The translations under genes and the position numbers were made by a program. The notes beneath the pieces are model-generated. The model had not been told where the DNA came from. It searched no databases and saw nothing but the letters and a program-made list of their open reading frames with translations. A stretch of DNA of 32,000 nucleotides from NCBI GenBank assembly GCA_001790095.1, contig MGBH01000001.1, forward strand, positions 930,001 to 962,000. Reading direction: 5' to 3'. Origin of the DNA: Candidatus Saccharimonadota bacterium (lineage in GTDB: Bacteria > Patescibacteriota > Microgenomatia > UBA1406 > GWC2-37-13). Shown piece after piece: positions 10,901 through 30,496 of the stretch (position 1 is the first letter of the stretch; each line of letters begins with the position of its first letter).

Positions 10901-13900
10901 ATCAACAACCACTGGCACCATGACAATCGGAGGCACAGCACAGACAGGACTTCTCACTTTGGGACAAAGCTCTGGTACCAATATTGTTGCTATTGGATCA
11001 GGTACAGGAGCAACAACCGTACAGATAGCAAACGGCGCAACAAACGGAAAAACAGTACAGATTGCAACAGGAGCTGTTGCAAATACCGTTTCTATGGGAT
11101 CAACCACGGGCGCATCTGCTACTACTCTTAATGCTGGATCAGGGAATCTTACCCTAAATGCCACATCCGGCAATGTAGCACTTCAAACTACTACAGCCGG
11201 AAATATTACCCTTACGCCAGGAGGCACCGGAGACATAAACATCACGGCTGATGCCGACTCATTTGTAAATATTGCAGGCCTCACAGACAGCACTGGCACC
11301 AGTCTTTGTCTTGATGGTTCAAGCAATCTTATTACTTGTGCAGGAGGAGGCACAGGCAATACATTGCAGGCTGCATATGATAATGGAAATACCATCACCA
11401 CAACCACTGCAAGAAATATTGCATTTACTTTAGGAGAAGTTGCAACACCTACTTCCCTTACTCTTGAAAATCAAGACACAGCCGGAACAAATGCGCAGCG
11501 AATCTTTAATTCCATTGCTTCAGGAACATTGACTAATGGACTTCTGGTTGAACAAACAGGAGCGGGTACCATGACCAGCGGAATAAATATAACACAAACC
11601 GCCGGAACTATATCAAGCGGTCTTACTTTCACTGGGATAACCAATGATATTACAACCGGTGCAAACCAACACCTGGCCCTTATGCCAAATGGAACTGGCA
11701 ATGTGGGTATAGGAACAACAAGTCCTGCTTATAACTTAGAGATCGAGGACGTTGGTGATGCTGCGATATATTTAGAAGCTGATTCCGCCGGAACTGGATC
11801 AGAAGATAATAATGCGTTTATTAAACTGAGTCAAGATGGTTTGCTTGTACAATCAATATTTGGAACTGTAGGCAATGCTGGATATGATCCAGAAAATGTC
11901 GCATATACTAATACCTTAGCTAACGCAACACTCCTGGGAACCTTAGACAATAATGGAGCGCTTCAGTTTGGGACAAACGACGCAGTCCGTATGACAATTG
12001 CAGCAACTGGAAACGTAGGTATTGGGACAACTTCTCCCACTCTTTTTAACCTTCAAGTAACAGGCAATATAGGCCCAACTACTACAAACAACTATGATCT
12101 TGGATTAACAGGTACCAGATGGAGAACAGGATATTTTGGAACTTCTCTTGACTCTCCTTCTTTAACCTATGCAGGTACTCTTGCATTGTCTGCAACAGGA
12201 GCAAATATAATAACGATGTCAACCAATGGATCTGAGAGATGGAGAGTTGCATCCAATGGAGTACTTCAGTCAAACGGTGCACAAACCATACAGACCTCAA
12301 CCGGTAATCTTACTCTTGCAACAGCTGCAGGAAACGGACATATACTTCTTTCTCCAAATGGGACGGGAAATGTGGGGGTGGGGACAACAACACCCACATC
12401 TTTCAAACTTGAAGTTGCCGGTAATATCGGACCTGATAGCGATATTACCAGAAATATAGGAGCATACAATAAGCGAATTGCCAATACATACACAGGAGTA
12501 ATTGATGAAAGCATATTTACCCAGGCAGGTGAAAATGCCATCAAGAATTCTGATCGTTACAATGGTGGACCGGGTGGATGGGGTACTGCGGCAAACTATT
12601 CTGAGGCTGTTGTGGTTGGGCCACAAGGAACAGAGGTACGAGCAATTACAAATTCAACTCCATTGAGCACGGCCGGATTATTAACTGATTATTTACCCGT
12701 TGATCCGAAAAAAGCATATCTGCTTGAATACTGGATCAAGCAGGATGACATAAGTGCAGGAACTGGAACAAATTATATTGGACGTGAAGAATATACAAGC
12801 GGTAAAGCTAATAATGACCAGGGAACCGGCCCGTACACGTGGGGCGGTCAAAAACCCCCTGCAGCAAATACATGGTATCATGTATATGGAATTATTCCTC
12901 CGCATGACTCAGGCGCTGAAGTAAGTCACACAGCAACAAACAGTACGATCACTCCTGGAACTGAGTATAAATTTTGGAGTTCATACACTGCCTATATCAG
13001 GGTTAAGATATATTTAAACTACAACCAACCAAATCCTTCACAGGTCTGGGTAACAGGAGTTGCACTTCGTCCCCTTTCAAGTGGCGGTGTTAATTCTTTT
13101 TTTGCTACACCAGGTGATGCCTCAACCTCGGGAAATCTTGCGTTTGTTACTGGGAAAACAGAAAGACTTACCATCACCTCTAACGGTAATGTTGGTATTG
13201 GTACTACTGCTCCTGCTACAGGCGCAAAATTGGATGTATATGGCGGACCTATCCGGCTTGGAGCAAATACTAGTGCAAACAACCAATTAAATACGACCGC
13301 CGGAAGTGCACCATCAGGAGACCTATATTGGGGCTCTCGAACAATCTGTGATGATTCGGGAAACTGCGGCACAGCCGGAGTGTCGCCTGATTCACTAGAC
13401 TATACAGAATTCCTAGATACCATGACTCTTGATGCAAATCTTATCTTGAATCAAACAACCTACACCTGGACGCAGAACTTTACCGGGACAACGACCACGG
13501 GCTACACTTACAATGCTAACTCTCTCACATCAGGTAAAGCTCTTAGTATCGCTTCTTCTGCTACTGCATTTACCGGCACATTAGCGCAAGTTTCTTTAAC
13601 AGGCAATAACGCCGCCAATACGGGTACCATATTTAAAGCATCTTCAAACGGAGCTTTAAATACCGGCACTGTTGCTATGATTACCAATCTGGGAGCCGGA
13701 ACATCATTTAGAGTAAATGATGAGACAGGAGATGCTGACACTACTCCATTTTTAATCGATGCAGGTGGCAATGTAGGAATAGGTACTACTTCACCTGTTT
13801 CTAAACTTCTTCTTGACGATGTTACTCCAACTATAACGGGATGGCAGAGTCTTACCATAAGAAGCACCGATGCTTTAGCTATAGATAAAGGAGGAACAAT

Positions 13901-16900
13901 CGGTTTTGGAGGCAAGTATACCTCAGGAGGCACATATGCAACATGGGCAGGTATAGCTGGATTGAAAGAAAATGCAACAGATTCAAATACTTCAGGATAT
14001 TTATCGCTGCGGACAAGAGCAAACGGAGGAAACCTAACAGAACAAATGAGAATTGCAAGTAACGGCAATGTCGGCATCGGCACTACAAACCCTTCTCTTT
14101 TTAAACTTCAAGTAACAGGCAATATAGGCCCAACTACTACAAACAACTATGATCTTGGATTAACAGGTACCAGATGGAGAACAGGATATTTTGGAACTTC
14201 TCTTGACTCTCCTTCTTTAACCTATGCAGGTACTCTTGCATTGTCTGCAACAGGAGCAAATATAATAACGATGTCAACCAATGGATCTGAGAGATGGAGA
14301 GTTGCATCCAATGGAGTACTTCAGTCAAACGGTGCACAAACCATACAGACCTCAACCGGTAATCTTACTCTTGCAACAGCTGCAGGAAACGGACATATAC
14401 TTCTTTCTCCAAATGGGACGGGAAATGTGGGTATAGGAACGACGGCGCCAAGCAATCCCCTTGCAGTCATCTCTACCACTACTCCTCAGCTTCGTGTTGG
14501 TTATGACAACACAACCAATTACTTCACATCGGCAGTTGCTTCAAACGGATCAGTCACGTTTAACGCTAATGGAGCATCTGCCGCCTTTACTTTTTCAGAT
14601 CCTACTACAATATCCTCAACCGCAAATCCTGGGCTCACTGTAGGTAACGGTACGACGGGTTATCTGAAAATCGGCGGTTCAACCATATCTGATGCTGCAG
14701 GAAACCTCACATTAGATAGTGACAGTGGTACTATCAGCGCTTCAGATATTTTAAACATGGGTTGGAACGCCATAACTGGCGCATGGATAGGAGATGCTGA
14801 TTCTTATGGAGGCGGAGGATATAACAATATCGCAAATCATAACAATAATCTTATCCGAGCGGATGAAAAGGAAACCGTTACCATGAATAATGGTTGTGAT
14901 GCAGGATCAATCGCTAATATGTTTGATGGTGACCCTTCAACTATTTGTCAACTCACTGATGCTGCACCCAATGAGATCATTACTATAGATATGGGAAGCT
15001 ATGAGCATTATTGGACAGGGTTTGAGATCATGTGGACATATGATCGAGGTACTAACAACGTAACAATAGAAAAATACTGGGATCCTGACTCAACAGGTGG
15101 CTGTGATACGTGGGCAACCATTTATAGCGGAGCAGCTACAGGATACTCTACAAAAGTAAATGCGCCAGGCAATTATATATGTCAGTACCGCATCACAATA
15201 ACTGGTACGCCAGATGTTGCAAATGATGTTCGTATCGGAGACATACGAGGGTTCCAATATTATAACGACCAGAAAAATGATCTATATGCCGATATTACCG
15301 GCGCTACTTTTTACGGTGCAGTACAAGTTGGAACATCTACGACGAACAGAGACCTTGATGTATATGGCAATGTCGGCATAGTCTCCAGTAACACCACCGG
15401 TACCACAACCAGTAGTAGTCTTGGTCTTTCTGCCAACTCCCTCACAACCGGAACAGGTTTGTACGCTGCTTCATCTACCCTAACCTCAGGTAAATTAGTA
15501 GATCTTCAGGTGAGTGGGACTGCTGCAGCTGCATCTCAAACAGGACTTAATATTCTAACTGCCGGTGCCAATGGTACTGCGGGTATCACTTCTTATGGTG
15601 CACAAATATCAAATACCCATACAGGTACTACCTCTACTAATGTTGCCCTCTATCTCAATGCCTCAGGGGGTACTACAGCAAACTATGGTTTGATTGTAAA
15701 CGCTGGTAATGTGGGTATCGGAACGACAGCACCGGGAGCAAAACTTGACGTGTATAATCCATCAGGCACCACCCTTGCTTTAGCAGCCCAGGTCCAAAAC
15801 CTTAATAATGCAACTGGTCAAAATGGGCTTCTTGTCAATGTCGCCCGTGTGACTACAGATGATGCCACATACGGACTCAATGTCCAAGGAGGCGGCACAA
15901 GCCGACTTTACGTGAGAGGTGACGGATTTGTGGGTATTGGTACTACCGCCCAATCAGCCAACTGGCCTACTGATCTGCTTTTTATAAACGGTGAATTTAC
16001 TGCTGACAAATTCAATGATTCAGGAAGCAATAACCGCTATATTGATCCCAATGGCACCTCACGAATAAGCTATCTTGAGATGAGAAACGATCTCACCTTT
16101 ATTGACGCCGGCAATGCCGGCATCGGTAAAATCAACTCAAACGGAAGTTCTGTTATTATTGAAGGCCCTACTGGAGGCACAACAGACCTCTGTGTTGAGG
16201 ATCCTGATACTGGAACAGGCGGAGAATGTGACGGTAAAATCGACGCAGGTACCATCGACCCTCCCTACACTATAAATGGGAAAAAATATGCTACATACAT
16301 GGCCTCCATGACAGGGGTCAAAGAAGAAACTACCGATACCGTACATATTGAGTCAAAGATAGCAGAAGGCAGATATGCGTATGTTATTGACTTTAATAAT
16401 CAACCCATTGGATCTGACTTATGGCTTTTTAGTAAAACAACTCATCTTAAAGATAACCTAGATCATATGAGCGTTCTTCTCACTCCAACTGATGATACAC
16501 GGACGTGGTACAAAGTAGATAACACCGGAGATCATCTCACCCTTATTCTTTATTCTTCACGACCAACACAGATATCATATCGACTTACTGCTCCACGCTT
16601 CAATGCTGAAAATTTTGCCAATATTAGACCAGATAATGCTCCTGGCGGATTCTTGATAAACGATCCCGATATCATAGGTTCCCCCTATACTATCACTGAA
16701 GTTGGATCTTTAACCGATACGCATCATATAGCTTCAACTCAACCAACCAATACCTCGCTTGAAAGCTTAAGAGAGACAATATATCAAGTTGTGCACAACA
16801 CAAGCGGAGAAATGATAGAAGAGGTAGCAGTTTTCAACAAAATATTGATAGGTAAAATCCAGGCTGGTTTTGTGGAAGCACAAAATGCTGTTGTGACCAA

Positions 16901-18263
16901 CGTATTAAACGCTTCACATATCGTATCTGAAAATATTTCAAGCTATTCGCTACAAGTCACAAAACTTTTTGTAAACGAAAAGATAATCAGCCCGATCGTT
17001 GAGACTACAGATCTGTCAGCCTCAGGTACTGCAACTCTTGCGACTATAAAGACCGATACCATCAAACCGCAAGAACAAAATGTCACGATAGACCTCAATA
17101 CTTCTTCAGACAAAGGTACATTTGCCAAGCTCATCGTAAACGGTATCAACAATATAACTGTTGCATCTATTGATGAAGCAGGTAACGCTACGTTTGCAGG
17201 CTCCCTGACTAGCGTATCAGTGATCAGTGATCAGCTGTCAGTAAATGATGCAACCATATCAGGAAGTCTAACTGCCAATGAGGCCAGTCTTTCGGGTAAA
17301 CTCATTGCGAAAGAGATTGTATCTGATAATATCAGCGAGCTTACGGAAAGAACCGCCGCGGTTGAGGAGCAAAGCGGGAAAACCGCGGAGGTTAATGAGG
17401 TTTTGAGCAACAGTATTAATCAGGTTCAACAGGATCTTGCGGCGATAAAAAACCTACCTCTCCCTAACCCCGCCTATTATCAAAATTTGAGTGACTACCC
17501 TGTTGCAACTGTTTCTTCACTTCTTGCTCAATCAATTCAGACAGAAGATCTTACTGCGACTGGCAATGTAAACCTTTACAAAGCCTCAATCGCTGATTCC
17601 CTCACGGCCGGAACTATTTTTATGCAGGATAACTCTATCCTCTCTCTTTCATGGGAGCTCAAACTTTCAGCTCTTGCTCAGATCACTCTTTTTGACGGAA
17701 GTGTGGTCATCGCAAAAAATGGAAACATTACTACAAAAGGAGAACTCATCGCTGAGGGAGGAGTCCGGACGGATGAAATACAATCAATCGATGGAAAAAA
17801 AGACATCGCTATCAAACTAAATTCTCAATTGTCAAATTCCAATGAAAATTCATTGAAAAATGCAAAATTGAAAATTGAAAATTCCGAAGGCATGGATGTT
17901 GCCTCAATCGATGCCTCAGGCGCAGCCCGTCTCAACAGTTTAGCCTTCACTCATATATCTACCAACTCTGCTATCATTGCTGATTCAGGAGAACGCACTG
18001 TGGATGATGAAATCATCCCGGCTATTGAAACCAATGCTGAGGTGGCAGGTACCGGAGTCCTGCCCGTGGATGCACCGGAGATTATAATATACAATAATAG
18101 TGTTACGGCAGATTCTCTCATCTATCTGACTCCGATTGGTGAAACGCCAATCAATCAGCTCACGGTTGTGAAAAAGGAGATACATGGCCGTCCATATTTC
18201 TCAGTCTCATCCGGTACTACTCTCCATCCAGAGATCAAGTTTAATTGGTTGATTATAAACTAG
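4950..18263 (+). CDS. Giant (4437 aa) N-terminally membrane-anchored surface protein with tail-fibre-like repeats and lectin-like modules
   Basis: A single uninterrupted ORF. About 90 aa form a cytoplasmic head, followed by one TM helix (YIGFAIIFVLMAMLGAGLYNQFF, ~5226-5290). By my count there are about 25 copies of the motif GNVGIGTTxPxxKLDV/KLEV, often followed by G(D/N)IGPxxDxTRDLGSxSxRW. That signature is typical of phage tail-fibre-domain proteins. The protein also contains a G/T/A-rich beta-helix-like tract (~10260-11300), a CBM-like module, a discoidin-like module and a long C-terminal stalk. Confidence 0.9.
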   Translation: MIKINTDSIFQFVKALKRKSVPKNEIKRRLLSVDRFIKWAHQKSYLADDTFKQIQDEIAKLAIGDQRLEIGNQFPITNRQSLISNYSFGIQHYIGFAIIFVLMAMLGAGLYNQFFKKTPTPFAYSTTPLQGARVISFQGRLTDSLGNPIIAPIDITYNFYTAPSGGSPIAGSTRVCTANPDQDGVFANLIGDDSGPSCSTQLPANIFTENSEVFLGVTIGSEITEMSPRQQIANVGYAMNAETLQGLPPGTTASSIPFISAQGDLLIAASTPGIRSTYTTANFVISSAQATTIQSANGGDITFNATDGGTLRFNTFNGTLNERMTITPYGNVGISNTNPRASLDVIGDASLSGNLVFNGLTSQIRQLNGGNLSFVTSPGGDLGVSTKMTLLNNGNLGIGTTVPIYKLDVAGAASIAGNLMTGGQMQLGRFVADPTAVGSGSMYFNTTNNTIYYYNGTDWTQVGSGGGGGDNVWQRVLDGVVIPKIAADALNLGNSATASATVHLAGKTGDNSFINTGNFGIGTTGPAMKLDLGTGYSTNNSTFRTGTYELQPYALNNAFLAENAYYNGSTWTRRNTGYAEGFQFFNGQTLFFNNTSGTGSFSATYPFKTDSGNSGSVALGGNINTATGNYSGSSMVVLGTGNVGIGTTSPLEKLDVRGNATVSGYLTIGQSGALRSQYGPLNLAYKSGVNSWTTGMVLKDGSGNVGIGTTNPETKLHVYTSTAIGTYRDIYAKQIIDDADARLQIRSGDTGNYGSGLILSTADKSWAMMAQASSDNNNFYIGYKSSATDEDIMAGSSKHFTINTSGNVGIGTTNPLEKLDVRGNATVSGYLTIGQSGALRSQYGPLNLAYKSGVNSWTTGMVLQDSTGNVGIGTLNPTSFKLEVAGDIGPEADNTRDLGSASRYWNTIYVNNIVGSGALGYWQIDSNVLHPANQWASVVDLAIGGTSTSSAKFQVYGSGTNAGTASSSGQLTFNNNSGTHYVNSLWNRPLSFRTSPGGDTGLTDRLYIAANGNVGVGTTNPVAKLDIKGTFSSEVGYSSYTGDGVWNANARPSKIITPNLHELRFGYSDAGGGQYYPSIGFAANSTAVNDSLLILQSRVALGTPESYNRWQVSGGGTISWGAGSGAVDTNLYRVAANILGTDDTLYVGGNIGIGTTSPLEKLDVTGNASASGYVTVGQAGALRSQYGPLNLAYKSGLNTWTTGMVLKDGTGYVGIGTINPTYLLDVSGGSGIVGRFSGRVIGGDAVASNEFVTFGQLAGGSGQYWQRSGEALSPSNIWNSINVGATATASAYVHLAGTPNENSFVNTGNFGIGTISPVAKLDVVGNASISASLSYRSGAPNYVNVLGNQPLSFRTSPGGDAGLTDRFTLLANGNIGIGTTAPATKLDIDTSSNTTGLRLRGLAETVEISDIYVGSNGTFILDNTVGTGSSGYIDLRPEDNDYGMVLRESDGTGTGSFANFYVVDAATDYMNIIVNGAQSTTGLVVNANGNVGINNTSPLEKLDVTGNASASGYVTVGQAGALRSQYGPLNLAYKSGVNSWTTGMVLQDGTGNVGIGTTNPVAKLQVYPGYTTGTYNGINVSGGTTGGTYNAFSTDAFVNSGAGTVTGLSITSRIQNAATSSNAYGINATVYKGSGSTGTTTAIYGANLRVLNSSSDVITDTYGLKIADISNSGTMSNTYGVYVGDITAGTQTNTPFSFYASDANALNYFAGNVGIGSSAPTSFKLEVAGDIGPDADGTRDIGSPSRYYDTVYANNVVGLGALGYWSRGTGVLFPSTTTDGVAATGSATTVATFTASGTNDAARLGGSANYITVSPSGDLSFTGANADAINKVSGTLNINTTNNQAITTGTGQVTLAGNVDATNGLDVTTANLTVGGANFTVVPGTGNITTAGTVSIATGQSYTGAGTVTLSSAAASSLTINSGTTGAIAIGNDASAETIGLGTGAAAKTITIGNTTGATALNQRVGTGNYTLDGVAGSTYAFGASTTTGTMTIGGTAQTGLLTLGQSSGTNIVAIGSGTGATTVQIANGATNGKTVQIATGAVANTVSMGSTTGASATTLNAGSGNLTLNATSGNVALQTTTAGNITLTPGGTGDINITADADSFVNIAGLTDSTGTSLCLDGSSNLITCAGGGTGNTLQAAYDNGNTITTTTARNIAFTLGEVATPTSLTLENQDTAGTNAQRIFNSIASGTLTNGLLVEQTGAGTMTSGINITQTAGTISSGLTFTGITNDITTGANQHLALMPNGTGNVGIGTTSPAYNLEIEDVGDAAIYLEADSAGTGSEDNNAFIKLSQDGLLVQSIFGTVGNAGYDPENVAYTNTLANATLLGTLDNNGALQFGTNDAVRMTIAATGNVGIGTTSPTLFNLQVTGNIGPTTTNNYDLGLTGTRWRTGYFGTSLDSPSLTYAGTLALSATGANIITMSTNGSERWRVASNGVLQSNGAQTIQTSTGNLTLATAAGNGHILLSPNGTGNVGVGTTTPTSFKLEVAGNIGPDSDITRNIGAYNKRIANTYTGVIDESIFTQAGENAIKNSDRYNGGPGGWGTAANYSEAVVVGPQGTEVRAITNSTPLSTAGLLTDYLPVDPKKAYLLEYWIKQDDISAGTGTNYIGREEYTSGKANNDQGTGPYTWGGQKPPAANTWYHVYGIIPPHDSGAEVSHTATNSTITPGTEYKFWSSYTAYIRVKIYLNYNQPNPSQVWVTGVALRPLSSGGVNSFFATPGDASTSGNLAFVTGKTERLTITSNGNVGIGTTAPATGAKLDVYGGPIRLGANTSANNQLNTTAGSAPSGDLYWGSRTICDDSGNCGTAGVSPDSLDYTEFLDTMTLDANLILNQTTYTWTQNFTGTTTTGYTYNANSLTSGKALSIASSATAFTGTLAQVSLTGNNAANTGTIFKASSNGALNTGTVAMITNLGAGTSFRVNDETGDADTTPFLIDAGGNVGIGTTSPVSKLLLDDVTPTITGWQSLTIRSTDALAIDKGGTIGFGGKYTSGGTYATWAGIAGLKENATDSNTSGYLSLRTRANGGNLTEQMRIASNGNVGIGTTNPSLFKLQVTGNIGPTTTNNYDLGLTGTRWRTGYFGTSLDSPSLTYAGTLALSATGANIITMSTNGSERWRVASNGVLQSNGAQTIQTSTGNLTLATAAGNGHILLSPNGTGNVGIGTTAPSNPLAVISTTTPQLRVGYDNTTNYFTSAVASNGSVTFNANGASAAFTFSDPTTISSTANPGLTVGNGTTGYLKIGGSTISDAAGNLTLDSDSGTISASDILNMGWNAITGAWIGDADSYGGGGYNNIANHNNNLIRADEKETVTMNNGCDAGSIANMFDGDPSTICQLTDAAPNEIITIDMGSYEHYWTGFEIMWTYDRGTNNVTIEKYWDPDSTGGCDTWATIYSGAATGYSTKVNAPGNYICQYRITITGTPDVANDVRIGDIRGFQYYNDQKNDLYADITGATFYGAVQVGTSTTNRDLDVYGNVGIVSSNTTGTTTSSSLGLSANSLTTGTGLYAASSTLTSGKLVDLQVSGTAAAASQTGLNILTAGANGTAGITSYGAQISNTHTGTTSTNVALYLNASGGTTANYGLIVNAGNVGIGTTAPGAKLDVYNPSGTTLALAAQVQNLNNATGQNGLLVNVARVTTDDATYGLNVQGGGTSRLYVRGDGFVGIGTTAQSANWPTDLLFINGEFTADKFNDSGSNNRYIDPNGTSRISYLEMRNDLTFIDAGNAGIGKINSNGSSVIIEGPTGGTTDLCVEDPDTGTGGECDGKIDAGTIDPPYTINGKKYATYMASMTGVKEETTDTVHIESKIAEGRYAYVIDFNNQPIGSDLWLFSKTTHLKDNLDHMSVLLTPTDDTRTWYKVDNTGDHLTLILYSSRPTQISYRLTAPRFNAENFANIRPDNAPGGFLINDPDIIGSPYTITEVGSLTDTHHIASTQPTNTSLESLRETIYQVVHNTSGEMIEEVAVFNKILIGKIQAGFVEAQNAVVTNVLNASHIVSENISSYSLQVTKLFVNEKIISPIVETTDLSASGTATLATIKTDTIKPQEQNVTIDLNTSSDKGTFAKLIVNGINNITVASIDEAGNATFAGSLTSVSVISDQLSVNDATISGSLTANEASLSGKLIAKEIVSDNISELTERTAAVEEQSGKTAEVNEVLSNSINQVQQDLAAIKNLPLPNPAYYQNLSDYPVATVSSLLAQSIQTEDLTATGNVNLYKASIADSLTAGTIFMQDNSILSLSWELKLSALAQITLFDGSVVIAKNGNITTKGELIAEGGVRTDEIQSIDGKKDIAIKLNSQLSNSNENSLKNAKLKIENSEGMDVASIDASGAARLNSLAFTHISTNSAIIADSGERTVDDEIIPAIETNAEVAGTGVLPVDAPEIIIYNNSVTADSLIYLTPIGETPINQLTVVKKEIHGRPYFSVSSGTTLHPEIKFNWLIIN
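5161..5206 (+). repeat. Degenerate heptanucleotide array (CYAATCN-type units) inside the cytoplasmic head of the giant ORF
   Basis: Units read as gtaatca(5161-5167) ... ccaatca(5172-5178) ctaatcg(5179-5185) ccaatcg(5186-5192) ctaatct(5193-5199) ctaatta(5200-5206). The region is translated as GNQFPITNRQSLISNY. Confidence 0.7.
6896..7033 (+). repeat. Cassette copy 1 (138-bp perfect direct repeat with 7391-7528)
   Basis: Compared base by base, with an offset of 495 nt (165 codons). It encodes SPLEKLDVRGNATVSGYLTIGQSGALRSQYGPLNLAYKSGVNSWTTG. Flanks diverge immediately on both sides. Confidence 0.95.
7391..7528 (+). repeat. Cassette copy 2 (138-bp perfect direct repeat with 6896-7033)
   Basis: See copy 1. 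The two are identical over 138 bp. Confidence 0.95.
8415..8512 (+). repeat. Cassette copy 3 (98-bp perfect direct repeat with 9435-9532)
   Basis: The offset is 1020 nt (340 codons). It encodes SPLEKLDVTGNASASGYVTVGQAGALRSQYGP. This is a variant of the same cassette as copies 1 and 2. Confidence 0.95.
9435..9583 (+). repeat. Cassette copy 4, mosaic: 5' part identical to copy 3, 3' part identical to copy 2
   Basis: 9435-9532 is identical to 8415-8512. 9525-9583 is identical to 7476-7534 (59 bp), whereas copy 3 differs there (ccgcttaatcttgcatacaaatcagg). The crossover falls within the shared tatggtcc. Confidence 0.9.
12051..12376 (+). repeat. 326-bp perfect direct repeat, copy A (with 14106-14431)
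   Basis: The offset is 2055 nt (685 codons). Identity was checked line by line and is supported by the identical antisense ORFs 12082..12300 and 14137..14355 in the track. It encodes LQVTGNIGPTTTNNYDLGLTGTRWRTGYFGTSLDSPSLTYAGTLALSATGANIITMSTNGSERWRVASNGVLQSNGAQTIQTSTGNLTLATAAGNGHILLSPNGTGNVG. Confidence 0.97.
12531..13075 (+). other. CBM4_9-like / jelly-roll carbohydrate-binding module within the giant protein
   Basis: The stretch ENAIKNSDRYNGGPGGWGTAANYSEAVVVGPQGTEVRAI...DPKKAYLLEYWIKQDD...NTWYHVYGIIPP...YIRVKIYLNY...VWVTGVALRP breaks the fibre-repeat pattern. It has the W / sG..v / Y.l..W.k / W..v spacing of CBM-type sandwiches. Recognition is by eye. Confidence 0.4.
14106..14431 (+). repeat. 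326-bp perfect direct repeat, copy B
   Basis: See copy A. There is one mismatch at 12050/14105 and the next at 12377/14432. Flanking sequence is clearly diverged. Confidence 0.97.
14821..15265 (+). other. F5/8 type C (discoidin/CBM32)-like module within the giant protein
   Basis: The stretch AGSIANMFDGDPSTICQL...EIITIDMGSYEHYWTGFEIMWTYDRGTNNVTIEKYW...CDTWATIYSG...YRITITG fits the a.n.fDGd..T.W...i.iDLG....i..i.i.W pattern of discoidin domains. Confidence 0.5.
17832..17883 (+). repeat. Copy of the dispersed heptamer-based module, in-frame in the giant ORF (SNSNENSLKNAKLKIEN)
   Basis: tcaaattccaatga (17832-17845) is 14/14 identical to the reverse complement of 28628-28641. aaattcattgaaaaatgcaaaattgaaaattgaaaatt (17846-17883) matches the reverse complement of 28575-28612 at 36/38. 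Confidence 0.9.
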
Positions 18264-23502: not shown

Positions 23503-25536
23503 ATGGAGCAAGAAACAAGTTTACTAAAAAGTATTAAATCGACCGCATTATATGTCATAATATTTCTCTTCCCTCTTTTTTTTCTTCCGTTTACTCAAGA
23601 ATATTTTTTGACCGGTAAAGTATATTTTTTATTATTTGGATCACTGCTTCTTCTTGTTTTAGCTACTCTTGAGTTTCTCGTCACAAAAAAATTTATTTGG
23701 GAAAAAAAACCTTTTGACAACACCGTAATCCTGTTTTTCATCACGATCGTGCTTTCTACCATCATATCATCACCCAATAAAATCCAAGCCATACTCAACC
23801 CAACGCTTGGCATCATGCCTTTATTTTCTTTTTTAATCCTTTATTTTTTTATATCACGAGAAAAAAACACAACTATTAAAAATGCTCTTGTCTATCTGTC
23901 CTCGTGTGTGGTGGCGCTTGTTTCCATCGTCATTTTTTTCAATCCGTTCAAACAAGCAGAACTACCAGTTATATTTGATTTTTTAAAGAACCCAGGCTTT
24001 TCTCCCCTTGGCAATTCGCTTGATGCTATATTTTTTCTTGGTTTTGCCGCAGTCCTTGCTGCATCTTCAATCTTTTCAAAGACAAACAAATCTCAAACAG
24101 AACGCATCCTTTCTTTTGGAAGCTTTACTCTCTCTCTTTCCGCAATAGGTTTTCTCATTTTTTCGTTGGTAAAGACAAAGGATGCATTTATTCTTCCCCC
24201 TTTTAATCTCTCTTGGTACGGTGCAGTTGAAACACTCAAACAACCTCTCACTGCTCTTTTTGGGGTTGGTGTTGATAATTATGCCAGTATGTTCACGCGC
24301 GTAAAAGATACTGCATATAATGCATCAAACATGTGGCAGATCAGCGCATTCAACGCCTCTCGATCAACATTTCTTCATATTCCAACAGAGCTTGGTATGT
24401 TTGGTGCTGTCGCGTTTGGCTTACTCATACTTCAGATCATCAGACACGGGTTTGCTATCCAAAAACAACACGGAAATAAATACGTGTTTCTCCCGATACT
24501 TTTTTTCCTGATTATTACTCTACTTTTTCCTCCATCATTAACTGTGTTTTTTCTTCTTTTTCTCATCCTAAGCGGAGTAGGAACCCATGAAAAACACGAA
24601 GAAACCGCTGCCTTTACCCTTGACACAGGTAAAATATTGCCTTTGTATGGATCTTTTATAATCATATCCCTTCTTTTCATTGGAGCTCTTGGATATCTTG
24701 GAGGCAGATCATATGCGGCAGAAGTCTATTTCAAACGCTCACTAGATGGTTTTGCAAAAAACAACGCAAAATATGTTTATGAAAATATGCGAATGGCTGT
24801 CATAACCAATCCTTTTATCGAGCGATTCCGTTCCAATTTTTCACAAACCAACCTTTTATTAGCCAATAATATTGCAGCAAAAGCTGCCGACCCCGCAAAT
24901 GCTTCGGCAGACAAACAAACAGATTCGACCAACACCAATACTTTATCTGATCAAGACAGACAAACTATCTCTCAAGCTCTACAGGCCGCAATTGAGGAAG
25001 CAAAAGCAGCGGTTACACTCAATCCTCAAAAAGCCGTAAATTGGGAGAATTTGGCCAACATATACCGCAACATCATGAACGTTGCTCAAGGAGCCGATAG
25101 CTGGACTATATCAGCATATCAACGAGCAATTATCCTTGATCCCCAAAATCCAAGCCATAGAGTCAATCTTGGTGGAATAATGCTTTCATTCAAGAACTAC
25201 GATGAGGCTGCGAAGCTGTTTGAGCAAGCAATTGCGATAAAGCCTGACTGGCCAAATGCATATTACAATCTTGGATGGGCAGCCTACCAAAAAAAAGACT
25301 ATCAAAAAGCAGCTCAAGCCATGCAAAGCACCGTCTCTCTTCTTGACCCAAAAAAAGATGAGGCAGACTATAAAAAAGCAATGGCAGATTTGGAAGAATT
25401 TAAAAAAATGCTTCCTGAAGAGGAGGCAACAGAAGCAGCCACAACGCCTTCAAAGTTAAGTGTTCCAACTCCCTCTTCTTTGGAGATCGAACCCAAAATC
25501 AAGCTGCCAAATGAGGCAAGCCCGGAAGCTAAATAG
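23503..25536 (+). CDS. Polytopic membrane protein of the O-antigen ligase/Wzy_C family with C-terminal TPR repeats
   Basis: The first ~400 aa contain about 10 or more hydrophobic helices. The loop motif NASRSTFLHIPTELGMFGAVAFGLLIL resembles the Wzy_C H..yl....E.G..G motif. The C-terminus has TPR-like repeats (NWENLANIYRN..., AYQRAIILDPQNPSHRVNLGGIMLSFKNYDEAAKLFEQAIAIKPDWPNAYYNLGWAAYQKKDYQKAAQAMQSTVSLLDP). Confidence 0.7.
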   Translation: MEQETSLLKSIKSTALYVIIFLFPLFFLPFTQEYFLTGKVYFLLFGSLLLLVLATLEFLVTKKFIWEKKPFDNTVILFFITIVLSTIISSPNKIQAILNPTLGIMPLFSFLILYFFISREKNTTIKNALVYLSSCVVALVSIVIFFNPFKQAELPVIFDFLKNPGFSPLGNSLDAIFFLGFAAVLAASSIFSKTNKSQTERILSFGSFTLSLSAIGFLIFSLVKTKDAFILPPFNLSWYGAVETLKQPLTALFGVGVDNYASMFTRVKDTAYNASNMWQISAFNASRSTFLHIPTELGMFGAVAFGLLILQIIRHGFAIQKQHGNKYVFLPILFFLIITLLFPPSLTVFFLLFLILSGVGTHEKHEETAAFTLDTGKILPLYGSFIIISLLFIGALGYLGGRSYAAEVYFKRSLDGFAKNNAKYVYENMRMAVITNPFIERFRSNFSQTNLLLANNIAAKAADPANASADKQTDSTNTNTLSDQDRQTISQALQAAIEEAKAAVTLNPQKAVNWENLANIYRNIMNVAQGADSWTISAYQRAIILDPQNPSHRVNLGGIMLSFKNYDEAAKLFEQAIAIKPDWPNAYYNLGWAAYQKKDYQKAAQAMQSTVSLLDPKKDEADYKKAMADLEEFKKMLPEEEATEAATTPSKLSVPTPSSLEIEPKIKLPNEASPEAK

Positions 25537-25549
25537 ATAGTAGTAAGAT

Positions 25550-25884
25550 ATGGAAAAGATCGTGTCATTTTCTGATTTGATTGCATGGAAAAAAGCACAT
25601 CTTTTCCATCAGAAGAAAAATTTTGTCTCATTGATCAGTTACGAAGAGCAGCAGTAACTATTACAAGCAATATTGCAGAAGGCTTCAATAGAAAAACACC
25701 ACTAGATAAGATTCATTTTTACTATACTGCCATATCTTCTGTTAGCGAAATACAAAGCCAGTTATATATAGCCCATGACCTACAATATATCACTGTAAAG
25801 ACATTTAGTAATCTTATGAGCGAGTCTGTAGAGATTCATAAACTAATCAATGGTCTTATTAAATATATGAAAAACCATACTTAA
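25550..25884 (+). pseudogene. Four-helix-bundle protein (23S rRNA intervening-sequence protein family) disrupted by a deletion and frameshift
   Basis: Frame 2 from ATG 25550 gives MEKIVSFSDLIAWKKAH, the family N-terminus, then runs out of frame to a stop at 25655-25657. Frame 1 (track ORF 25585..25884) carries the rest: FPSEEKFCLIDQLRRAAVTITSNIAEGFNRK...SEIQSQLYIAHDLQYI. WKKAH ends at 25600 and FPSEE starts at 25603, so the ~13 residues that normally separate them are missing. A truncated 99-aa product from ATG 25585 remains possible. Confidence 0.5.
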
Positions 25885-25907
25885 TACTCCCTACTTTCTA
25901 CTATCTA

Positions 25908-27002: not shown

Positions 27003-28322
27003 TTATACCATTTTTGCCAGGATTCGTTCGATAGCTACCTCAAACGCTGCCTGTTTAAGCGGCAGTTTTTTTGCCACTGATTTCTTCCAGATGATATCAA
27101 GAGCCTCTTCCATCATTTTTTTCAGCCTTTTGTTTACTTTTTCCTCCCTCCACGTCTCACCTTTCATGTTTTGATACCATTCAAGGTAGGATACAGTCAC
27201 TCCTCCACTGTTTGCCAACACATCAGGTACGATCACAACTCCTTGTTTTGTAAGATATTCATAGGCTTCCTCAGTCACCGGTCCGTTTGCCATCTCAACA
27301 ACTATCTTTGCTTTAATTTTCTTCATGTTTTGTGCATTTATTACATTTTCAAGCGCTGCAGGAACCAATATATCTACAGGAAGTTCTAGTAACTCCTCAT
27401 TAGATATTGTTTTTCCGTATGCTATATTACATACTGATCCTTTGCAGTAACAGCCAGCTACGCTTCCTTTTTCTTTTTTACATTTTAAGGTTGCATCCAC
27501 ATCAAGTCCTTCTTTCACATAGACTCCCCCCTTTGAATCGGAAAGAGCTACGATCGTAAATTTTTCTTCTTCTGCAAGACGAGCAAAATAGTACCCCACA
27601 TTTCCAAATCCCTGCACTGCAATTTTCAATGATTGTGTATTGGAATTTGCCTGTGATTTGTGGTTTGTGGTTTGAGTTTTGAGTTTTGAAAGCAGAGCTT
27701 TTAATATTATAACCCCTCCTCTTCCCGTAGCCTCTGTTCGACCCAACGTACCTCCTAAATCAAGCGGCTTCCCGGTAAAAGTAGCCCATAACTGGCTTTT
27801 CGTATAATGGGTTTTTCTTGCCTGTTGAATCTTCACATACTCATCCACCATCCATCTCATGATCTGCGGATTAGTGTTGACATCGGGAGCTGGCACATCA
27901 TACTCTGGTCCAACAAAGGACGAAATCGCACGAGCATATGCTCTTGATATTCGTTCAAGCTCGCCCCCAGACACTGTCTTGGGATCAAAGATCACTCCTC
28001 CCTTGCCTCCACCGTACGGAATACCTGCTACTGCACATTTTATCGTCATGAGTGTTGCTAGGGCTCTTACCTCATCTCTGTTTACATTGGGGTGGAATCG
28101 AATTCCCCCTTTATAAGGGCCAAGGGCGTTATTATGCTCTATCCTATAGGCGGTAAATATTTTTTCTGTTCCATCATCCATAGTCACTGAAAAATGCAAT
28201 TCATGTACTGCATCAGATTCAAGAAGCCTGTCTATCGTTGCATCCGGAAGTTTGAGACCCTTTGCCGTTTTAGTTATAACCCCAAGAGCCGACTCGAGCA
28301 TTTTTTTGCCAGTGTTGGACAT
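27003..28322 (-). CDS. gdhA: Glutamate dehydrogenase (Glu/Leu/Phe/Val dehydrogenase family)
   Basis: It has the catalytic-Lys motif GPYKGGIRFHP, then GIPYGGGKGG and DVPAPDVNT, and the Rossmann motif VQGFGNVGYYFA. The stop lies 12 nt before the M23 gene start. Confidence 0.9.
   Translation of the reverse strand: MSNTGKKMLESALGVITKTAKGLKLPDATIDRLLESDAVHELHFSVTMDDGTEKIFTAYRIEHNNALGPYKGGIRFHPNVNRDEVRALATLMTIKCAVAGIPYGGGKGGVIFDPKTVSGGELERISRAYARAISSFVGPEYDVPAPDVNTNPQIMRWMVDEYVKIQQARKTHYTKSQLWATFTGKPLDLGGTLGRTEATGRGGVIILKALLSKLKTQTTNHKSQANSNTQSLKIAVQGFGNVGYYFARLAEEEKFTIVALSDSKGGVYVKEGLDVDATLKCKKEKGSVAGCYCKGSVCNIAYGKTISNEELLELPVDILVPAALENVINAQNMKKIKAKIVVEMANGPVTEEAYEYLTKQGVVIVPDVLANSGGVTVSYLEWYQNMKGETWREEKVNKRLKKMMEEALDIIWKKSVAKKLPLKQAAFEVAIERILAKMV
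27618..27688 (-). repeat. Heptamer-based module in-frame in gdh (KTQTTNHKSQANSNTQSLKIA)
   Basis: On the plus strand, tgcaattttcaatga (27618-27632) is 15/15 identical to 28594-28608 in trxB, and attggaatttg (27639-27649) is 11/11 identical to 28630-28640. Five tandem heptads follow: tgatttg tggtttg tggtttg agttttg agttttg (27654-27688). Confidence 0.85.
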
Positions 28323-28416: not shown

Positions 28417-29478
28417 TCAAACTTCTGAATTTGCTTCTAACCAGTTTTCAACATCTAAAGCCGCACCCACACCCATACCAGCAGCTACAGCTGCCTGACG
28501 ATAAATATGATCGACACAATCTCCAGCTGCAAATACACCCCTGACAGATGTTGCGGTTTGATAATCCATATCAAAATTTTCAGTTTTCAATTTTGCAATT
28601 TTCAATGAATTTTCAGTTTTTAATTGATCATTGGAATTTGATTGATAATTGGATCTTGATAATTGAAAATTAATAAGTGCTGCTCGCTGTGTTGTCACTA
28701 TATAGCCTTTATCATCAAATTTAACCATATCTTTAAATAAATCCGTATCTGGTTTATGGCCGATAGCAACGAACAGCCCGTCAATTTTTAATTGTCGGTC
28801 GGTTGAAACTAGCTGAGAACTGATTTCAGCCGATTTCAACCGTACTCCTTCTACTCTGTTTTGTCCTAAGACTTCTTCAATCGTACTGTTCCATATAATC
28901 TCAATTTTGGTATTTTCTTTTACCCGCTTTTGCATTATTTTGGATGCACGGAAATCCGAACGTCTGTGGATAATAAACACTTTTGATGCGAACTTAGTGA
29001 GAGTAAGAGCTTCTTCAAGCGCTGTATCTCCACCACCAGCCACACCAACTATTTTGTTTTTGAAGAAAAATCCATCGCAGGTTGCACATGCAGAGACTCC
29101 CTTACCTCGCAGTCGCTGTTCGCTGGCAAGTCCAAGCCATAATGCTTTTGCGCCTGTTGCGATGATAACGGATTTGGTTTTAATCGCTTGAACCAGTTTG
29201 TCTGATTGATCAAATTTGACCAGCTGTACATTTTCATCGATGATATGTGCGCCGAACTTTACGGCTTGTTTGCGCATCTTGTCAATAAGTTCTGAGCCAA
29301 GAATATTTTCATGTCCGGGATAGTTTTCCACTTCAGATGTAAGCACCAACTGTCCTCCTGGCGGAGATCCTGCATATATGATAGGTGCAAGGCCCGCTCG
29401 CCCCAGATATATTCCAGCAGATAATCCAGCAGCCCCTCCCCCTATGATAACTACGTCTTTTAGATCTGACTGTTTCAT
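28417..29478 (-). CDS. trxB: Thioredoxin-disulfide reductase carrying an internal insertion
   Basis: It has the FAD motif VVIIGGGAAGLSAG, the redox-active CATCDG, the NADPH motif GVAGGGDTALEEA...HRRSDFRA, and C-terminal GVFAAGDCVDHIYRQAAVAAGMG. At 353 aa it is longer than the ~310-320 aa usual for the family. Confidence 0.92.
   Translation of the reverse strand: MKQSDLKDVVIIGGGAAGLSAGIYLGRAGLAPIIYAGSPPGGQLVLTSEVENYPGHENILGSELIDKMRKQAVKFGAHIIDENVQLVKFDQSDKLVQAIKTKSVIIATGAKALWLGLASEQRLRGKGVSACATCDGFFFKNKIVGVAGGGDTALEEALTLTKFASKVFIIHRRSDFRASKIMQKRVKENTKIEIIWNSTIEEVLGQNRVEGVRLKSAEISSQLVSTDRQLKIDGLFVAIGHKPDTDLFKDMVKFDDKGYIVTTQRAALINFQLSRSNYQSNSNDQLKTENSLKIAKLKTENFDMDYQTATSVRGVFAAGDCVDHIYRQAAVAAGMGVGAALDVENWLEANSEV
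28566..28680 (-). repeat. Heptamer-based palindromic module in-frame in trxB, about 115 nt
   Basis: Heptads attgata attggat cttgata attgaaa attaata lie at 28641-28675, and TGAAAAY-type units lie at 28575-28612. An internal inverted repeat CAATGA...TCATTG is present. The module is stop-free in the coding frame and translates to INFQLSRSNYQSNSNDQLKTENSLKIAKLKTENFDMDY. Confidence 0.85.
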
Positions 29479-29525: not shown

Positions 29526-29753
29526 TCACAGGTTTATTGCCCTTTCAATCATCTTTTCCACCTTGCTTACGTCTTTCTCAGGTAAAAACTCGCACATATC
29601 AGAAACGACAATCTCTTTGGAAAGACCATCGATCGCTTTCTTGATGGCAGATATTTGTTGTAGAACATCACTACACTCTCTTTTTTCCTTTACCATGCGC
29701 TGTATTCCTTTTAATTGTCCAATCACACGGTTAATTCGTTGATCTAAGTCCAT
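29526..29753 (-). CDS. CsoR/RcnR/FrmR-family (DUF156) transcriptional repressor, His-less x-C-x-C type
   Basis: The 75-aa protein reads RINRVIGQLKGIQRMVKEKRECSDVLQQISAIKKAIDGL...SDMCEF. This is the family pattern R..R..GQ..g...M.e....C.dvl.Q..A...A. Cys occupy positions 27 and 54, and Val sits where the Cu-ligand His of CsoR would be (4 residues before the second Cys). Confidence 0.8.
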   Translation of the reverse strand: MDLDQRINRVIGQLKGIQRMVKEKRECSDVLQQISAIKKAIDGLSKEIVVSDMCEFLPEKDVSKVEKMIERAINL

Positions 29754-29792
29754 GAATAACGTTTTATAATTGGTAACTTCCTTTTACTCTCG

Positions 29793-29840
29793 CCCCCCTA
29801 TACTCAGTACTAGTATAGAGTATACAATATTAAATTTCAA
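29793..29840 (-). promoter_or_regulatory. Promoter plus candidate CsoR-family operator for the csoR-like/trxB operon
   Basis: On the minus strand, TTGAAA (plus 29835-29840) is followed by a 17-nt spacer and TATACT (plus 29812-29817). The inverted repeat CTATACT(29798-29804)-N7-AGTATAG(29812-29818) overlaps the -10 element. It abuts a C6/G6 tract (29793-29798), the G/C tract flanked by AT-rich arms typical of CsoR/RcnR operators. Confidence 0.5.
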
Positions 29841-29900
29841 GTATCAATTCTCAATTTTCAAACAATTGCCAATTTGGCAAATGAGAATCGAAAATTATCC
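29841..29900. repeat. Intergenic low-complexity segment related to the heptamer module, with a 15-nt palindrome
   Basis: attctcaatt (29847-29856) is identical to 17821-17830 next to the giant-gene copy. aattttc and gaaaatt motifs are present. The perfect palindrome TTGCCAAtTTGGCAA lies at 29866-29880. Confidence 0.6.
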
Positions 29901-29902
29901 AC

Positions 29903-30496
29903 TTACCTTTTTATAAGAAGCTTAATAATAAGCAGGGAGGTATCTATGAATATTTTTATATCCTTCCCGAACGAAGGATTCTTCGCGTACTCGACATCCA
30001 TTTTCATCCATTTATCAAATGGAATATCGTGAGCCCCCTTCACGATCCATTCGCTTGTCATACCGGGAAGCACAGAAAAACGTGCCTGGTATTGCTTTGG
30101 GATCAGAAGCGCCTCCTCCATGGGGAGCGGACGCGGACCAATCAAACTCATCTCACCCCGCATAACATTGATAAGCTGTAAGATCTCATCAAGGGCATAA
30201 TGAGAGAGTTTTTTTCCTACTTTTGTGTATCTTGGGTCATGACGAATCTTAAATACCGGCCCATCAACTTCGTTGAGATGAAGAAGCTTTTTTTGTTGCT
30301 TTTCTGCTCCAACTACCATAGTCCGGATTTTATAGAGAGTAAAGGGTTTTTTACCCTTTCCCATCCGCTTTTGTGTAAATATAAACGGGCCCTTAGAATC
30401 AAGTTTGACTATAATATACAATACACAAAGGACTGGGATCAGGAAAATTAATCCGCAAAAAGCTATGATGCGATAGAGAAAATAACGAAGCGCCAT
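29903..30496 (-). CDS. Small monotopic phosphoglycosyl (sugar-1-phosphate) transferase, bacterial sugar transferase family (PglC/WbaP C-terminal type)
   Basis: It has an N-terminal re-entrant helix (IIAFCGLIFLIPVLCVLYIIV). Motifs present are GPFIFTQKRMGKGKKPFTLYKIRTM, DPRYTKVGKKLSHYALDEILQLINVMRGEMSLIGPRPLP. Confidence 0.88.
   Translation of the reverse strand: MALRYFLYRIIAFCGLIFLIPVLCVLYIIVKLDSKGPFIFTQKRMGKGKKPFTLYKIRTMVVGAEKQQKKLLHLNEVDGPVFKIRHDPRYTKVGKKLSHYALDEILQLINVMRGEMSLIGPRPLPMEEALLIPKQYQARFSVLPGMTSEWIVKGAHDIPFDKWMKMDVEYAKNPSFGKDIKIFIDTSLLIIKLLIKR

Follow-up and report, generated by a model that had tools for sequence, protein, structure and literature searches.

A heptamer-armed palindromic repeat, in frame within trxB, belongs to a family dispersed across the Candidate Phyla Radiation and has arms common with S23p-type cassettes

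The thioredoxin-disulfide reductase gene trxB in a 32,000-nt stretch of a Candidatus Saccharimonadota bacterium genome (contig MGBH01000001.1, positions 930,001 to 962,000; hereafter the window, to which all coordinates without a locus name refer) carries an extra segment within its coding sequence. This segment is likely to be a translated copy, without an open reading frame (ORF) of its own, of a palindromic repeat found across the Candidate Phyla Radiation (CPR), with heptamer arms and related to cassettes of the S23p/intervening sequence (IVS) type. Sequence comparison places the trxB module in a dispersed family that is far wider than a single window reveals, that has further copies in frame within genes, and that has its arms in common with S23p-type cassettes. 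The gene and the element are laid out as follows:

28417-29478, minus strand: trxB, the host gene, 353 aa, from the ORF list.
28575-28671 (97 nt), minus strand: the ORF-less palindromic element, full length, in frame, residues ~270-302 NFQLSRSNYQSNSNDQLKTENSLKIAKLKTENF.
~28671-28628, in the sense direction: left arm of the element (AATTTTC/AATTATC units).
~28630-28575, in the sense direction: right arm of the element (GAAAATT units).

In the translation, 49 residues separate ...DDKGYI from the next conserved block, TSVRGVFAAGD, as the first-pass annotation of the window had observed. Solved TrxB chains match the protein at E 1e-79, and all align with it in two blocks (query residues 6-263/265 and 307/308-348) with only 0-3 chain residues between them, so the net insertion is ~42 aa; in the sequence alignment it follows the strand that closes with GYI and precedes the C-terminal FAD GD motif. 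The element proper is slightly narrower than the module first delimited (28566-28680), and its AT-rich construction from 7-nt units is borne out: Tandem Repeats Finder places arrays of period 7 at 28575-28606 (AATTTTC, 4.4 copies with 84% matches) and 28641-28676 (5.1 copies, 70%), and G+C content is 20.6% in 28575-28671 versus 42.7% in the remainder of trxB. An nhmmer model of the arms finds the right arm at E 2e-9 and detects the left arm as well, and the module can be aligned over its whole length with 23 canonical copies from Patescibacteria lineages. AlphaFold2, given a 25-sequence alignment, predicts the TrxB core confidently and the insert as two low-confidence helices (263-279 and 285-293, pLDDT ~50-70).

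The segment is presumably kept in mRNA and protein. Translation rather than removal is indicated because the used frame alone is open in this AT-rich sense strand, as first claimed, the other two being interrupted by TGA/TAA, and because the inserts of orthologues vary in length by whole codons; tryptic peptides SNYQSNSNDQLK and TENFDMDYQTATSVR would be expected from it. The opposite possibility, i.e., that the segment is an intervening sequence removed after transcription by RNase III-type excision, splicing or bypass so that mature TrxB lacks it, draws on an architecture related to 23S IVSs, which RNase III excises (PMC4990558), and on a significant antisense-strand hairpin (z = -3.5). However, RNase III excision leaves fragments and would sever the mRNA, coding copies are stop-free in exactly the used frame despite 21% G+C and differ between orthologues in codon steps, the mRNA strand shows no folding beyond that of shuffles (z = 0.0), and no Rfam intron family matches; removal is therefore extremely improbable. 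The inverted repeat recognized at first pass spans the whole element, but on the mRNA strand its palindrome has decayed, and folding of the element as DNA gives significance on neither strand. An intein or self-splicing intron was also considered and rejected: the module consists of 33 low-complexity residues, Rfam finds no intron, and Pfam finds only pyridine-nucleotide oxidoreductase domains in TrxB.

The trxB module is one of several copies in this species, and three others lie in the window:

17820-17883, plus strand: a shorter copy that retains both termini but has lost the interior, in frame within the surface-protein gene (4437 aa), NSQLSNSNENSLKNAKLKIENS.
27618-27649, minus strand: probably a piece from the middle of the element, located in a variable gdh loop directly ahead of the GFGNVG Rossmann motif, with other heptamer arrays (27652-27689) before it.
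29832-29905, minus strand: a degenerate intergenic copy (nhmmer E 0.02), just 5' of the promoter that serves the csoR-like gene (gene at 29526-29753).

The recurrence reported for the giant surface-protein gene (36/38 plus 14/14) is borne out: the 38-nt trxB core returns at 17846-17883 with two mismatches, whereas 0 of 100 shuffles gave a match. When extended, the likeness spans 41 nt at 95%, and positions 17832-17845 add a 14/14 match. In the sense direction, the two copies align over their full length, from common first bases AATTYTCAATTRTC to common last bases TTGAAAAYTGAAAATT, with two in-frame indels. The giant-gene copy scores E 1.4e-8 with nhmmer, and here too only the used sense frame is open, the others running into TGA/TAA. 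A reading of the likeness as a chance match of AT-rich, low-complexity sequence was rejected. The parts said to recur in gdh are a real match (32 nt at 84% to the giant-gene copy, with collinear 15/15 and 11/11 matches to the trxB copy) but only a fragment, whose last codons (K-I-A) overlap the native Rossmann strand; the nhmmer arm model does not match it, and the length of this loop varies among relatives (0 to +31 aa). The three copies have one relative reading frame in common (SNSN..SLK.A), as had been proposed.

In the degenerate intergenic copy, the last heptamer, TTGAAAT, occupies the -35 position of the csoR-like gene, which precedes trxB; in relatives, the rho-csoR spacer is empty in L006, and in L007 it contains a full copy with 4 nt between it and the -35 box. 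Just outside the window, locus L001 contains three more copies: one in frame within TGT (NDQLKIENSLKNENWKMEIN), one just before a TATAAT box, and a full intergenic one that is separated by 5 nt from the ATG of the ABC-2 gene downstream and has 26 identical nt in common with the trxB left arm. The element thus does occur elsewhere in the genome, in the giant gene, TGT and intergenic DNA; the tally for the species is four clear and three degenerate copies in ~48 kb, with half of the clear ones within genes. This sample includes 8.9 kb to the left of the window in which the nhmmer arm model finds zero copies; a metagenome scan with a two-box pattern specific to the subfamily of this genome returned one unrelated stretch and gave no genome-wide count.

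Some of these loci have other features. The csoR promoter is conserved (TTGACA/TTGAAA, N17, TATACT) and is followed, just before the ATG, by a palindromic ATACTnGTAnnnAGTAT box, which is probably the CsoR operator (promoter and box: window 29755-29800; L006 6753-6795; L007 9620-9665). In TGT, a 7-nt deletion (GATGAGG, beside GATCAGG) that distinguishes L003 from L001 (L001 position ~1630) splits the gene into two ORFs in one metagenome's version of this species, which could reflect heptamer-sized slippage or an assembly error. The giant gene (4950-18263) differs in length between strains, encoding 4437 aa in this one and a called 4769 aa in a second sample (L128 13828-end), a difference that fits its internal 277-300-nt repeats and recurrent 27-58-nt motif.

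Beyond this species, a scan of one genome per species (GTDB, taxon labels as deposited) for AAATTYATTGAAAAWTGYAAA yielded at least 119 stretches with 120 matches. Among the matches listed, 72 of 120 show similarity that continues well past the pattern and stops abruptly after ...TTGAAAATTGAAAATT, and 38 of these 72 extended hits are full palindromes embedded in unrelated flanks. The repeat, AATTTTCAATTTTCAATTTACAATGA ... TCATTGAAAATTYATTGAAAATTGTAAATTGAAAATTGAAAATT, has arm-pair spans of 76-166 nt with a mode near 108, and its full copies begin and end alike (AATTTTCAAT...ATTGAAAATT). The arm model hits 59 of the 60 Patescibacteria-labelled loci among the matches listed, in ~20 named lineages, including Saccharibacteria, Roizman-, Woese-, Davies-, Ames-, Curtiss-, Levy-, Moran-, Magasanik-, Falkow-, Kaiser- and Zambryski-bacteria, Paceibacterota and Peregrini-/Peribacteria. 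Identity is ~85-90% over ~60 nt across many CPR lineages; the arm model gave no hits among the listed pattern matches from Clostridia, Paenibacillus, Bacteroidota and Asgard genomes. Local BLAST in four relatives compared at the trxB site finds copies between genes in two (L006, L007) and in frame in fmt in a third (L004). The family, which is abundant in Patescibacteria, is mostly intergenic, often abutting start codons, and also occupies permissive loops and interdomain linkers of conserved genes.

Nothing in the searched records describes this family, in agreement with the first-pass claim of an undescribed heptamer-based repeat. Rfam at gathering thresholds finds only tRNAs in the window and eight loci, with no matching family, intron or rRNA; the literature search found no paper containing the sequence or such a CPR repeat and, beyond the Coxiella IVS (PMC4990558), nothing on S23p together with heptamers. 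A profile of the element-encoded peptides, run against a protein collection, retrieves no host protein, its only hits being 23 very short ORFs (27-73 aa).

In-frame residence in conserved genes recurs elsewhere: among the matches listed, 8 of the 72 extended hits sit in ORFs that run at least 60 codons on either side. Pfam identifies the hosts as MnmA, MiaB (between the UPF0004 and radical-SAM domains), a GT1 glycosyltransferase and prepilin peptidase A24 (in each case between the two domains), and LspA; a GT39-like membrane protein is another host ORF, outside the Pfam check. In-gene copies occur in both orientations and are read in two sense frames (ENSLKIVNCKLKI, KFIENCKLKIEN) and in antisense (FTIFNEFS). 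Multiple copies with defined ends, placed in frame in unrelated genes, sustain the earlier comparison to a dispersed repeat that spares ORFs in the manner of Rickettsia palindromic elements (RPEs).

A second palindromic family, ACACCAAATTTTTTTGACGC...GCGCAAAAAAATTGGTGT, with a GGGG/CCCC centre and the peptide FFDAMGTPxPLKxKK, is found in frame in gdh and TGT of two relatives, with 45 nt at 93% between gdh and TGT copies:

L004 11808-11907: copy in gdh.
L004 717-761: copy in TGT.
L007 740-768: copy in TGT.

It occupies the gdh and TGT loops of L004/L007, where the present genome has AATTTTC-type sequence, which suggests that permissive sites take whichever repeat family is present.

The trxB site has a history of its own. 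The gene order (rho, sugar transferase, csoR-like gene, trxB, gdh, LysM-M23 peptidase) forms a conserved block, and the protein is 100% identical to that of Candidatus Roizmanbacteria RIFOXYB2_FULL_38_10 (GCA_001790045.1), where the locus is present too. Orthologues answer the question of whether the loop is an insertion in two ways: solved TrxB chains lack it, but most Microgenomates TrxBs hold related sequence at the same site (0 to ~55 aa), with a few having none (P0093, P0119), so the copy is not a recent insertion private to this genome. Four relatives have a heptamer palindrome there, in which the left arm, (AATTTTC)n, reads NFQFSIFNFQ and the right arm, (GAAAATT/TAAAAAT)n, reads ENSLKIKNLKLKI.

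This variability lends itself to a different explanation, in which a lineage-specific TrxB loop grew in place by slippage of AT-rich heptamers and its likeness to other loci reflects convergence or occasional gene conversion. Such growth would suit a site that is filled in most Microgenomates TrxBs to such different lengths, the perfect (AATTTTC)4 run found there in L004, and the many differing heptamer arrays in the window and its relatives; heptamer number is also variable in the Coxiella IVS (PMC4990558). However, a ~100-nt sequence, with both termini and its internal order, recurs at unrelated coding and intergenic loci here and in distant phyla, and identical stretches of 26-41 nt go beyond convergence; slippage accounts for length variation, not for origin. 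A purely local slippage origin is thus largely refuted by the dispersed copies, and a loop grown in place is quite improbable; the copies more plausibly arose by insertion.

Further small repeats occur in the trxB of relatives. In L007, a G+C hairpin, CCCGCCtctGGCGGG (10830-10850, peptide ESRLWRE), is nested within the AT-rich trxB element. Directly 3' of the element in trxB of L004-L007 (L004 ~11020-11060), PKFD…YQTS is encoded by an inverted repeat, CCGAAGTTTGAT / ATCAAACTTCGG, whose right half is made of the native TrxB QTS codons, with an apparently compensated change in L005 (CAGAAGTTTG / CAAACTTCTG). A third, G+C-richer insert (…PPQSAGSVAPRS…EGSLRRSLAQT…) stands at two differing TrxB positions, in P0033 and P0092 versus P0006, P0009 and P0075, and may represent one more in-frame repeat family:

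TrxB alignment columns 101-157 and 280-325: third insert.

The arms connect the short repeats to a class of larger cassettes. Among 57 arm pairs in ~0.9 Mb of loci, five are 454-501 nt apart. In four of these (454-472 nt), the enclosed ORF, 117-133 aa long, matches PF05635, the '23S rRNA-intervening sequence protein', at E 1e-13 to 1e-15, and the fifth (501 nt) encloses a GIY-YIG gene; the larger pairs otherwise hold only a host gene fragment. The composite S23p members are L036, L038, L089 and L108, with related arms in L007. The PF05635 ORF starts inside a heptamer arm (TTTCAATGA), and the centre of the short copies retains the first ~6 S23p codons, CAATGAATCAATTTTCAAAC; the trxB copy itself has no ORF. 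Each of the five S23p genes in the loci covered lies between heptamer-built inverted arms of 50-64 nt, which in four cases belong to the AATTTTC family, and no 23S rRNA sequence was found in these loci. The GIY-YIG nuclease gene of L079 (1314-1814), within AATTTTC-type arms, is itself bracketed by the G+C-rich GTCATCCTGAGCGGAGCGAAGGATCTCTGTCC / GGACAGAGATTCTTCACTCCGC...GAATGACA.

The window contains an S23p-type gene of its own:

25534-25907, plus strand: PF05635 (S23p-type) gene, apparently frameshifted (25551-25880), with inverted arms TAGATAGTAGTAAG / CTTTCTACTATCTA.

Its arms are built on a different heptamer (CTACTAT, 3.3 copies by Tandem Repeats Finder) and include a 14-nt inverted repeat, 93% complementary, with 346 nt between the halves; the cassette architecture is like that of the AATTTTC composites. 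The downstream arm begins at the stop codon of the LysM-M23 gene. In Coxiella, the IVS is 428-444 nt long, with a 28-bp terminal stem, an S23p ORF and, directly before its ATG, two to four tandem heptamers (GACAGAT) whose number varies among strains; according to an old, untested idea, the product of the IVS ORF is a component of mobility (PMC4990558). Part for part, the CPR composites are arranged like this IVS, and the short elements look like ORF-less derivatives of the composites.

Heptamer repeats of other sequences are also present. A palindrome near the N-terminus of the giant gene has the architecture of the trxB module and an unrelated sequence:

5130-5196, plus strand: in-frame AGCGATT/AATCGCT palindrome with 31-nt arms, 81% complementary and 5 nt apart (Tandem Repeats Finder period 7).

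Its RNA fold is -28.3 kcal/mol (z = -6.5). Unrelated arrays include a perfect intergenic (AGTTAGT)4 at 1090-1118 and AAACCAC/AAAACTC in gdh at 27652-27689, and in L004 TTAAAAA and ACACGTT/ATACGTT arrays lie upstream of csoR (9470-9500, 9568-9596). Heptamer repeats of many sequences thus seem to be a general trait of these genomes.

According to the explanation considered likely here, the trxB module would be a non-autonomous copy whose arms are arrays of AATTTTC and its complement GAAAATT. It would be transcribed and translated within the enzyme, adding ~33 residues inside the ~42-residue excursion, and would persist because selection spares only frame-preserving, stop-free versions at tolerant sites; its length would later drift via slippage of heptamer units. 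The short copies would be internal-deletion derivatives of S23p/Avd-like cassettes with the same arms, and S23p or another protein may recognize these arms. The distribution of the family suggests that it is mobile. The words 'selfish' and 'colonises' in the first-pass annotation may turn out apt; no insertion event, target-site duplication or mobilizing enzyme was found.

Several observations weigh against this account. In 37 full copies, flank identity at k = 1-6 is not above that of shuffled pairing, i.e., there is no target-site duplication, and no flanking dinucleotide is conserved, although a palindromic AATT target within the ends would escape this test. The 57 arm pairs (~0.9 Mb of loci) include no full-length insertion sequence (IS) with a transposase, and no insertion event was seen. 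The trxB copy is probably old, to judge from its orthologues, and its 95% match to the giant-gene copy and the 26-nt identity to an intergenic copy would then need re-insertion or gene conversion. The species sample is ~48 kb of a 1.2-Mb genome. Arm-model hits also occur in a few metagenome-assembled genomes labelled Ignavibacteria, Bdellovibrionales or Gammaproteobacteria, which could reflect transfer or mis-binning. Finally, a structural role is unsupported, since double changes in the arms of 24 copies are no commoner than in shuffles, RNAalifold finds no consensus pairs in these 24 aligned copies, and folding shows no strand preference over 49 copies; the mRNA-strand fold of the trxB element adds to this list. 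Canonical copies fold with z of -4 to -13. Selection against mRNA hairpins is not indicated, since the trxB and giant-gene copies, although they fold more strongly in antisense, stay within the spread of non-coding copies.

Counted on the pairs of a fold derived from L025, the arms of the 24 copies are 86.8% complementary, versus 26-60% when slid. High complementarity without covariation or a consensus fold implies that the arms are conserved as sequence, like transposon ends, and not as compensated hairpins. Conservation as sequence would also be expected of a functional module acting in cis, in which the heptamer arrays (TTGAAAA/TTGTAAA) are portable promoter, UP-element or protein-binding arrays, or sequences spread by drive like uptake signals, and the in-gene copies are by-products. 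Of 106 arm ends, 21 fall 0-9 nt from the start codon (ATG) of an ORF with 80 codons or more, ~8x the expected rate (~2%), and in L006, L007, L001 and the window there are copies with -35/-10 boxes directly downstream of them, which keeps a regulatory reading of the family alive; the degree of identity across CPR lineages is likewise unusual for neutral selfish DNA. By contrast, spacing to downstream -10 boxes is inconsistent, copies lie mid-ORF, far from gene starts and in both orientations, and a two-armed palindrome with cargo cassettes (S23p, GIY-YIG) is unexpected for a promoter element, so that a cis-acting role as the primary explanation is unlikely.

If the trxB module is a translated member of the palindromic family, it provides a second, much larger example of palindromes tolerated in essential proteins, known until now chiefly from Rickettsia, and one from a superphylum whose tiny genomes are presumed to contain little junk DNA. 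It would help to explain the frequent odd low-complexity insertions in CPR housekeeping enzymes and bears on annotation, alignment-based phylogeny and structure prediction. The conservation of the arms across phyla suggests either a conserved protein that recognizes them or frequent transfer among CPR lineages, and the arms could serve as a sequence marker of CPR DNA. Arms common with S23p cassettes also offer a testable handle on a question dating from ~1990, i.e., what the rRNA IVSs and their four-helix-bundle ORFs are and whether they are mobile. A bolder proposal, tentative and rather doubtful, is that heptamer-armed palindromes and S23p (Avd-like) genes form one widespread class of mobile cassettes, of which the classical 23S IVSs would be those copies that settled in rRNA; the cassettes and their ~100-nt derivatives would be mobilized by S23p or by a host factor able to read heptamer arrays, and the derivatives would have spread across the Patescibacteria radiation and repeatedly entered essential genes in frame.

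Known systems resemble the CPR repeat in part. RPEs are reportedly ~100-150-nt palindromes without a transposase of their own, present in many copies both between genes and in frame in conserved genes, where they add an extra surface peptide. The CPR repeat is similarly palindromic, dispersed, short (76-166 nt) and in frame in conserved genes, e.g., trxB, the giant gene and TGT, but it has heptamer arms, is conserved in sequence across many phyla as opposed to one genus, and has larger versions that carry a four-helix-bundle gene; because its hosts are Patescibacteria, not Rickettsiales, it is at best an RPE analogue. Bacterial miniature inverted-repeat transposable elements (Correia, ERIC/IRU) are small, ORF-less and dispersed, have conserved terminal inverted repeats, and are sometimes fused to ORFs or supply promoters. 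The CPR repeat is likewise small and ORF-less with conserved ends (AATTTTCAAT/ATTGAAAATT), but differs in lacking target-site duplications (37 copies) and a cognate DDE transposase IS among the elements found, and in having larger relatives that carry S23p or GIY-YIG genes. The absence of target duplication is compatible with repetitive extragenic palindromes and bacterial interspersed mosaic elements (REP/BIME) or IS200/IS605-type elements, hairpins from which the CPR repeat differs in showing no covariation and no consensus fold; no Y1 transposase (RAYT/TnpA) gene was noticed between arm pairs. Cyanobacterial short tandemly repeated repetitive (STRR) sequences are said to include several tandem heptamer types per genome and associated small mobile repeats, some of them frame-preserving; they belong to another phylum and have other sequences, and we know of no described link to an S23p cassette.

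The S23p-type 23S IVSs of Coxiella, Leptospira, Brucella and Xanthomonas, long suspected to be mobile, consist of terminal inverted repeats around a ~120-aa PF05635 ORF, as in the CPR composites, and are alike also in having variable tandem heptamers before the ATG, a length of ~430-500 nt and ORF-less versions (PMC4990558). However, the CPR copies lie in intergenic DNA and protein genes, not in rRNA helix 25 or 45, excision within protein genes would be lethal to the message, and the CPR short form is ~100 nt long and highly multicopy. In its behaviour the CPR repeat is thus like an RPE and in its architecture like an IVS, set apart from the former by host or sequence and from the latter by location.

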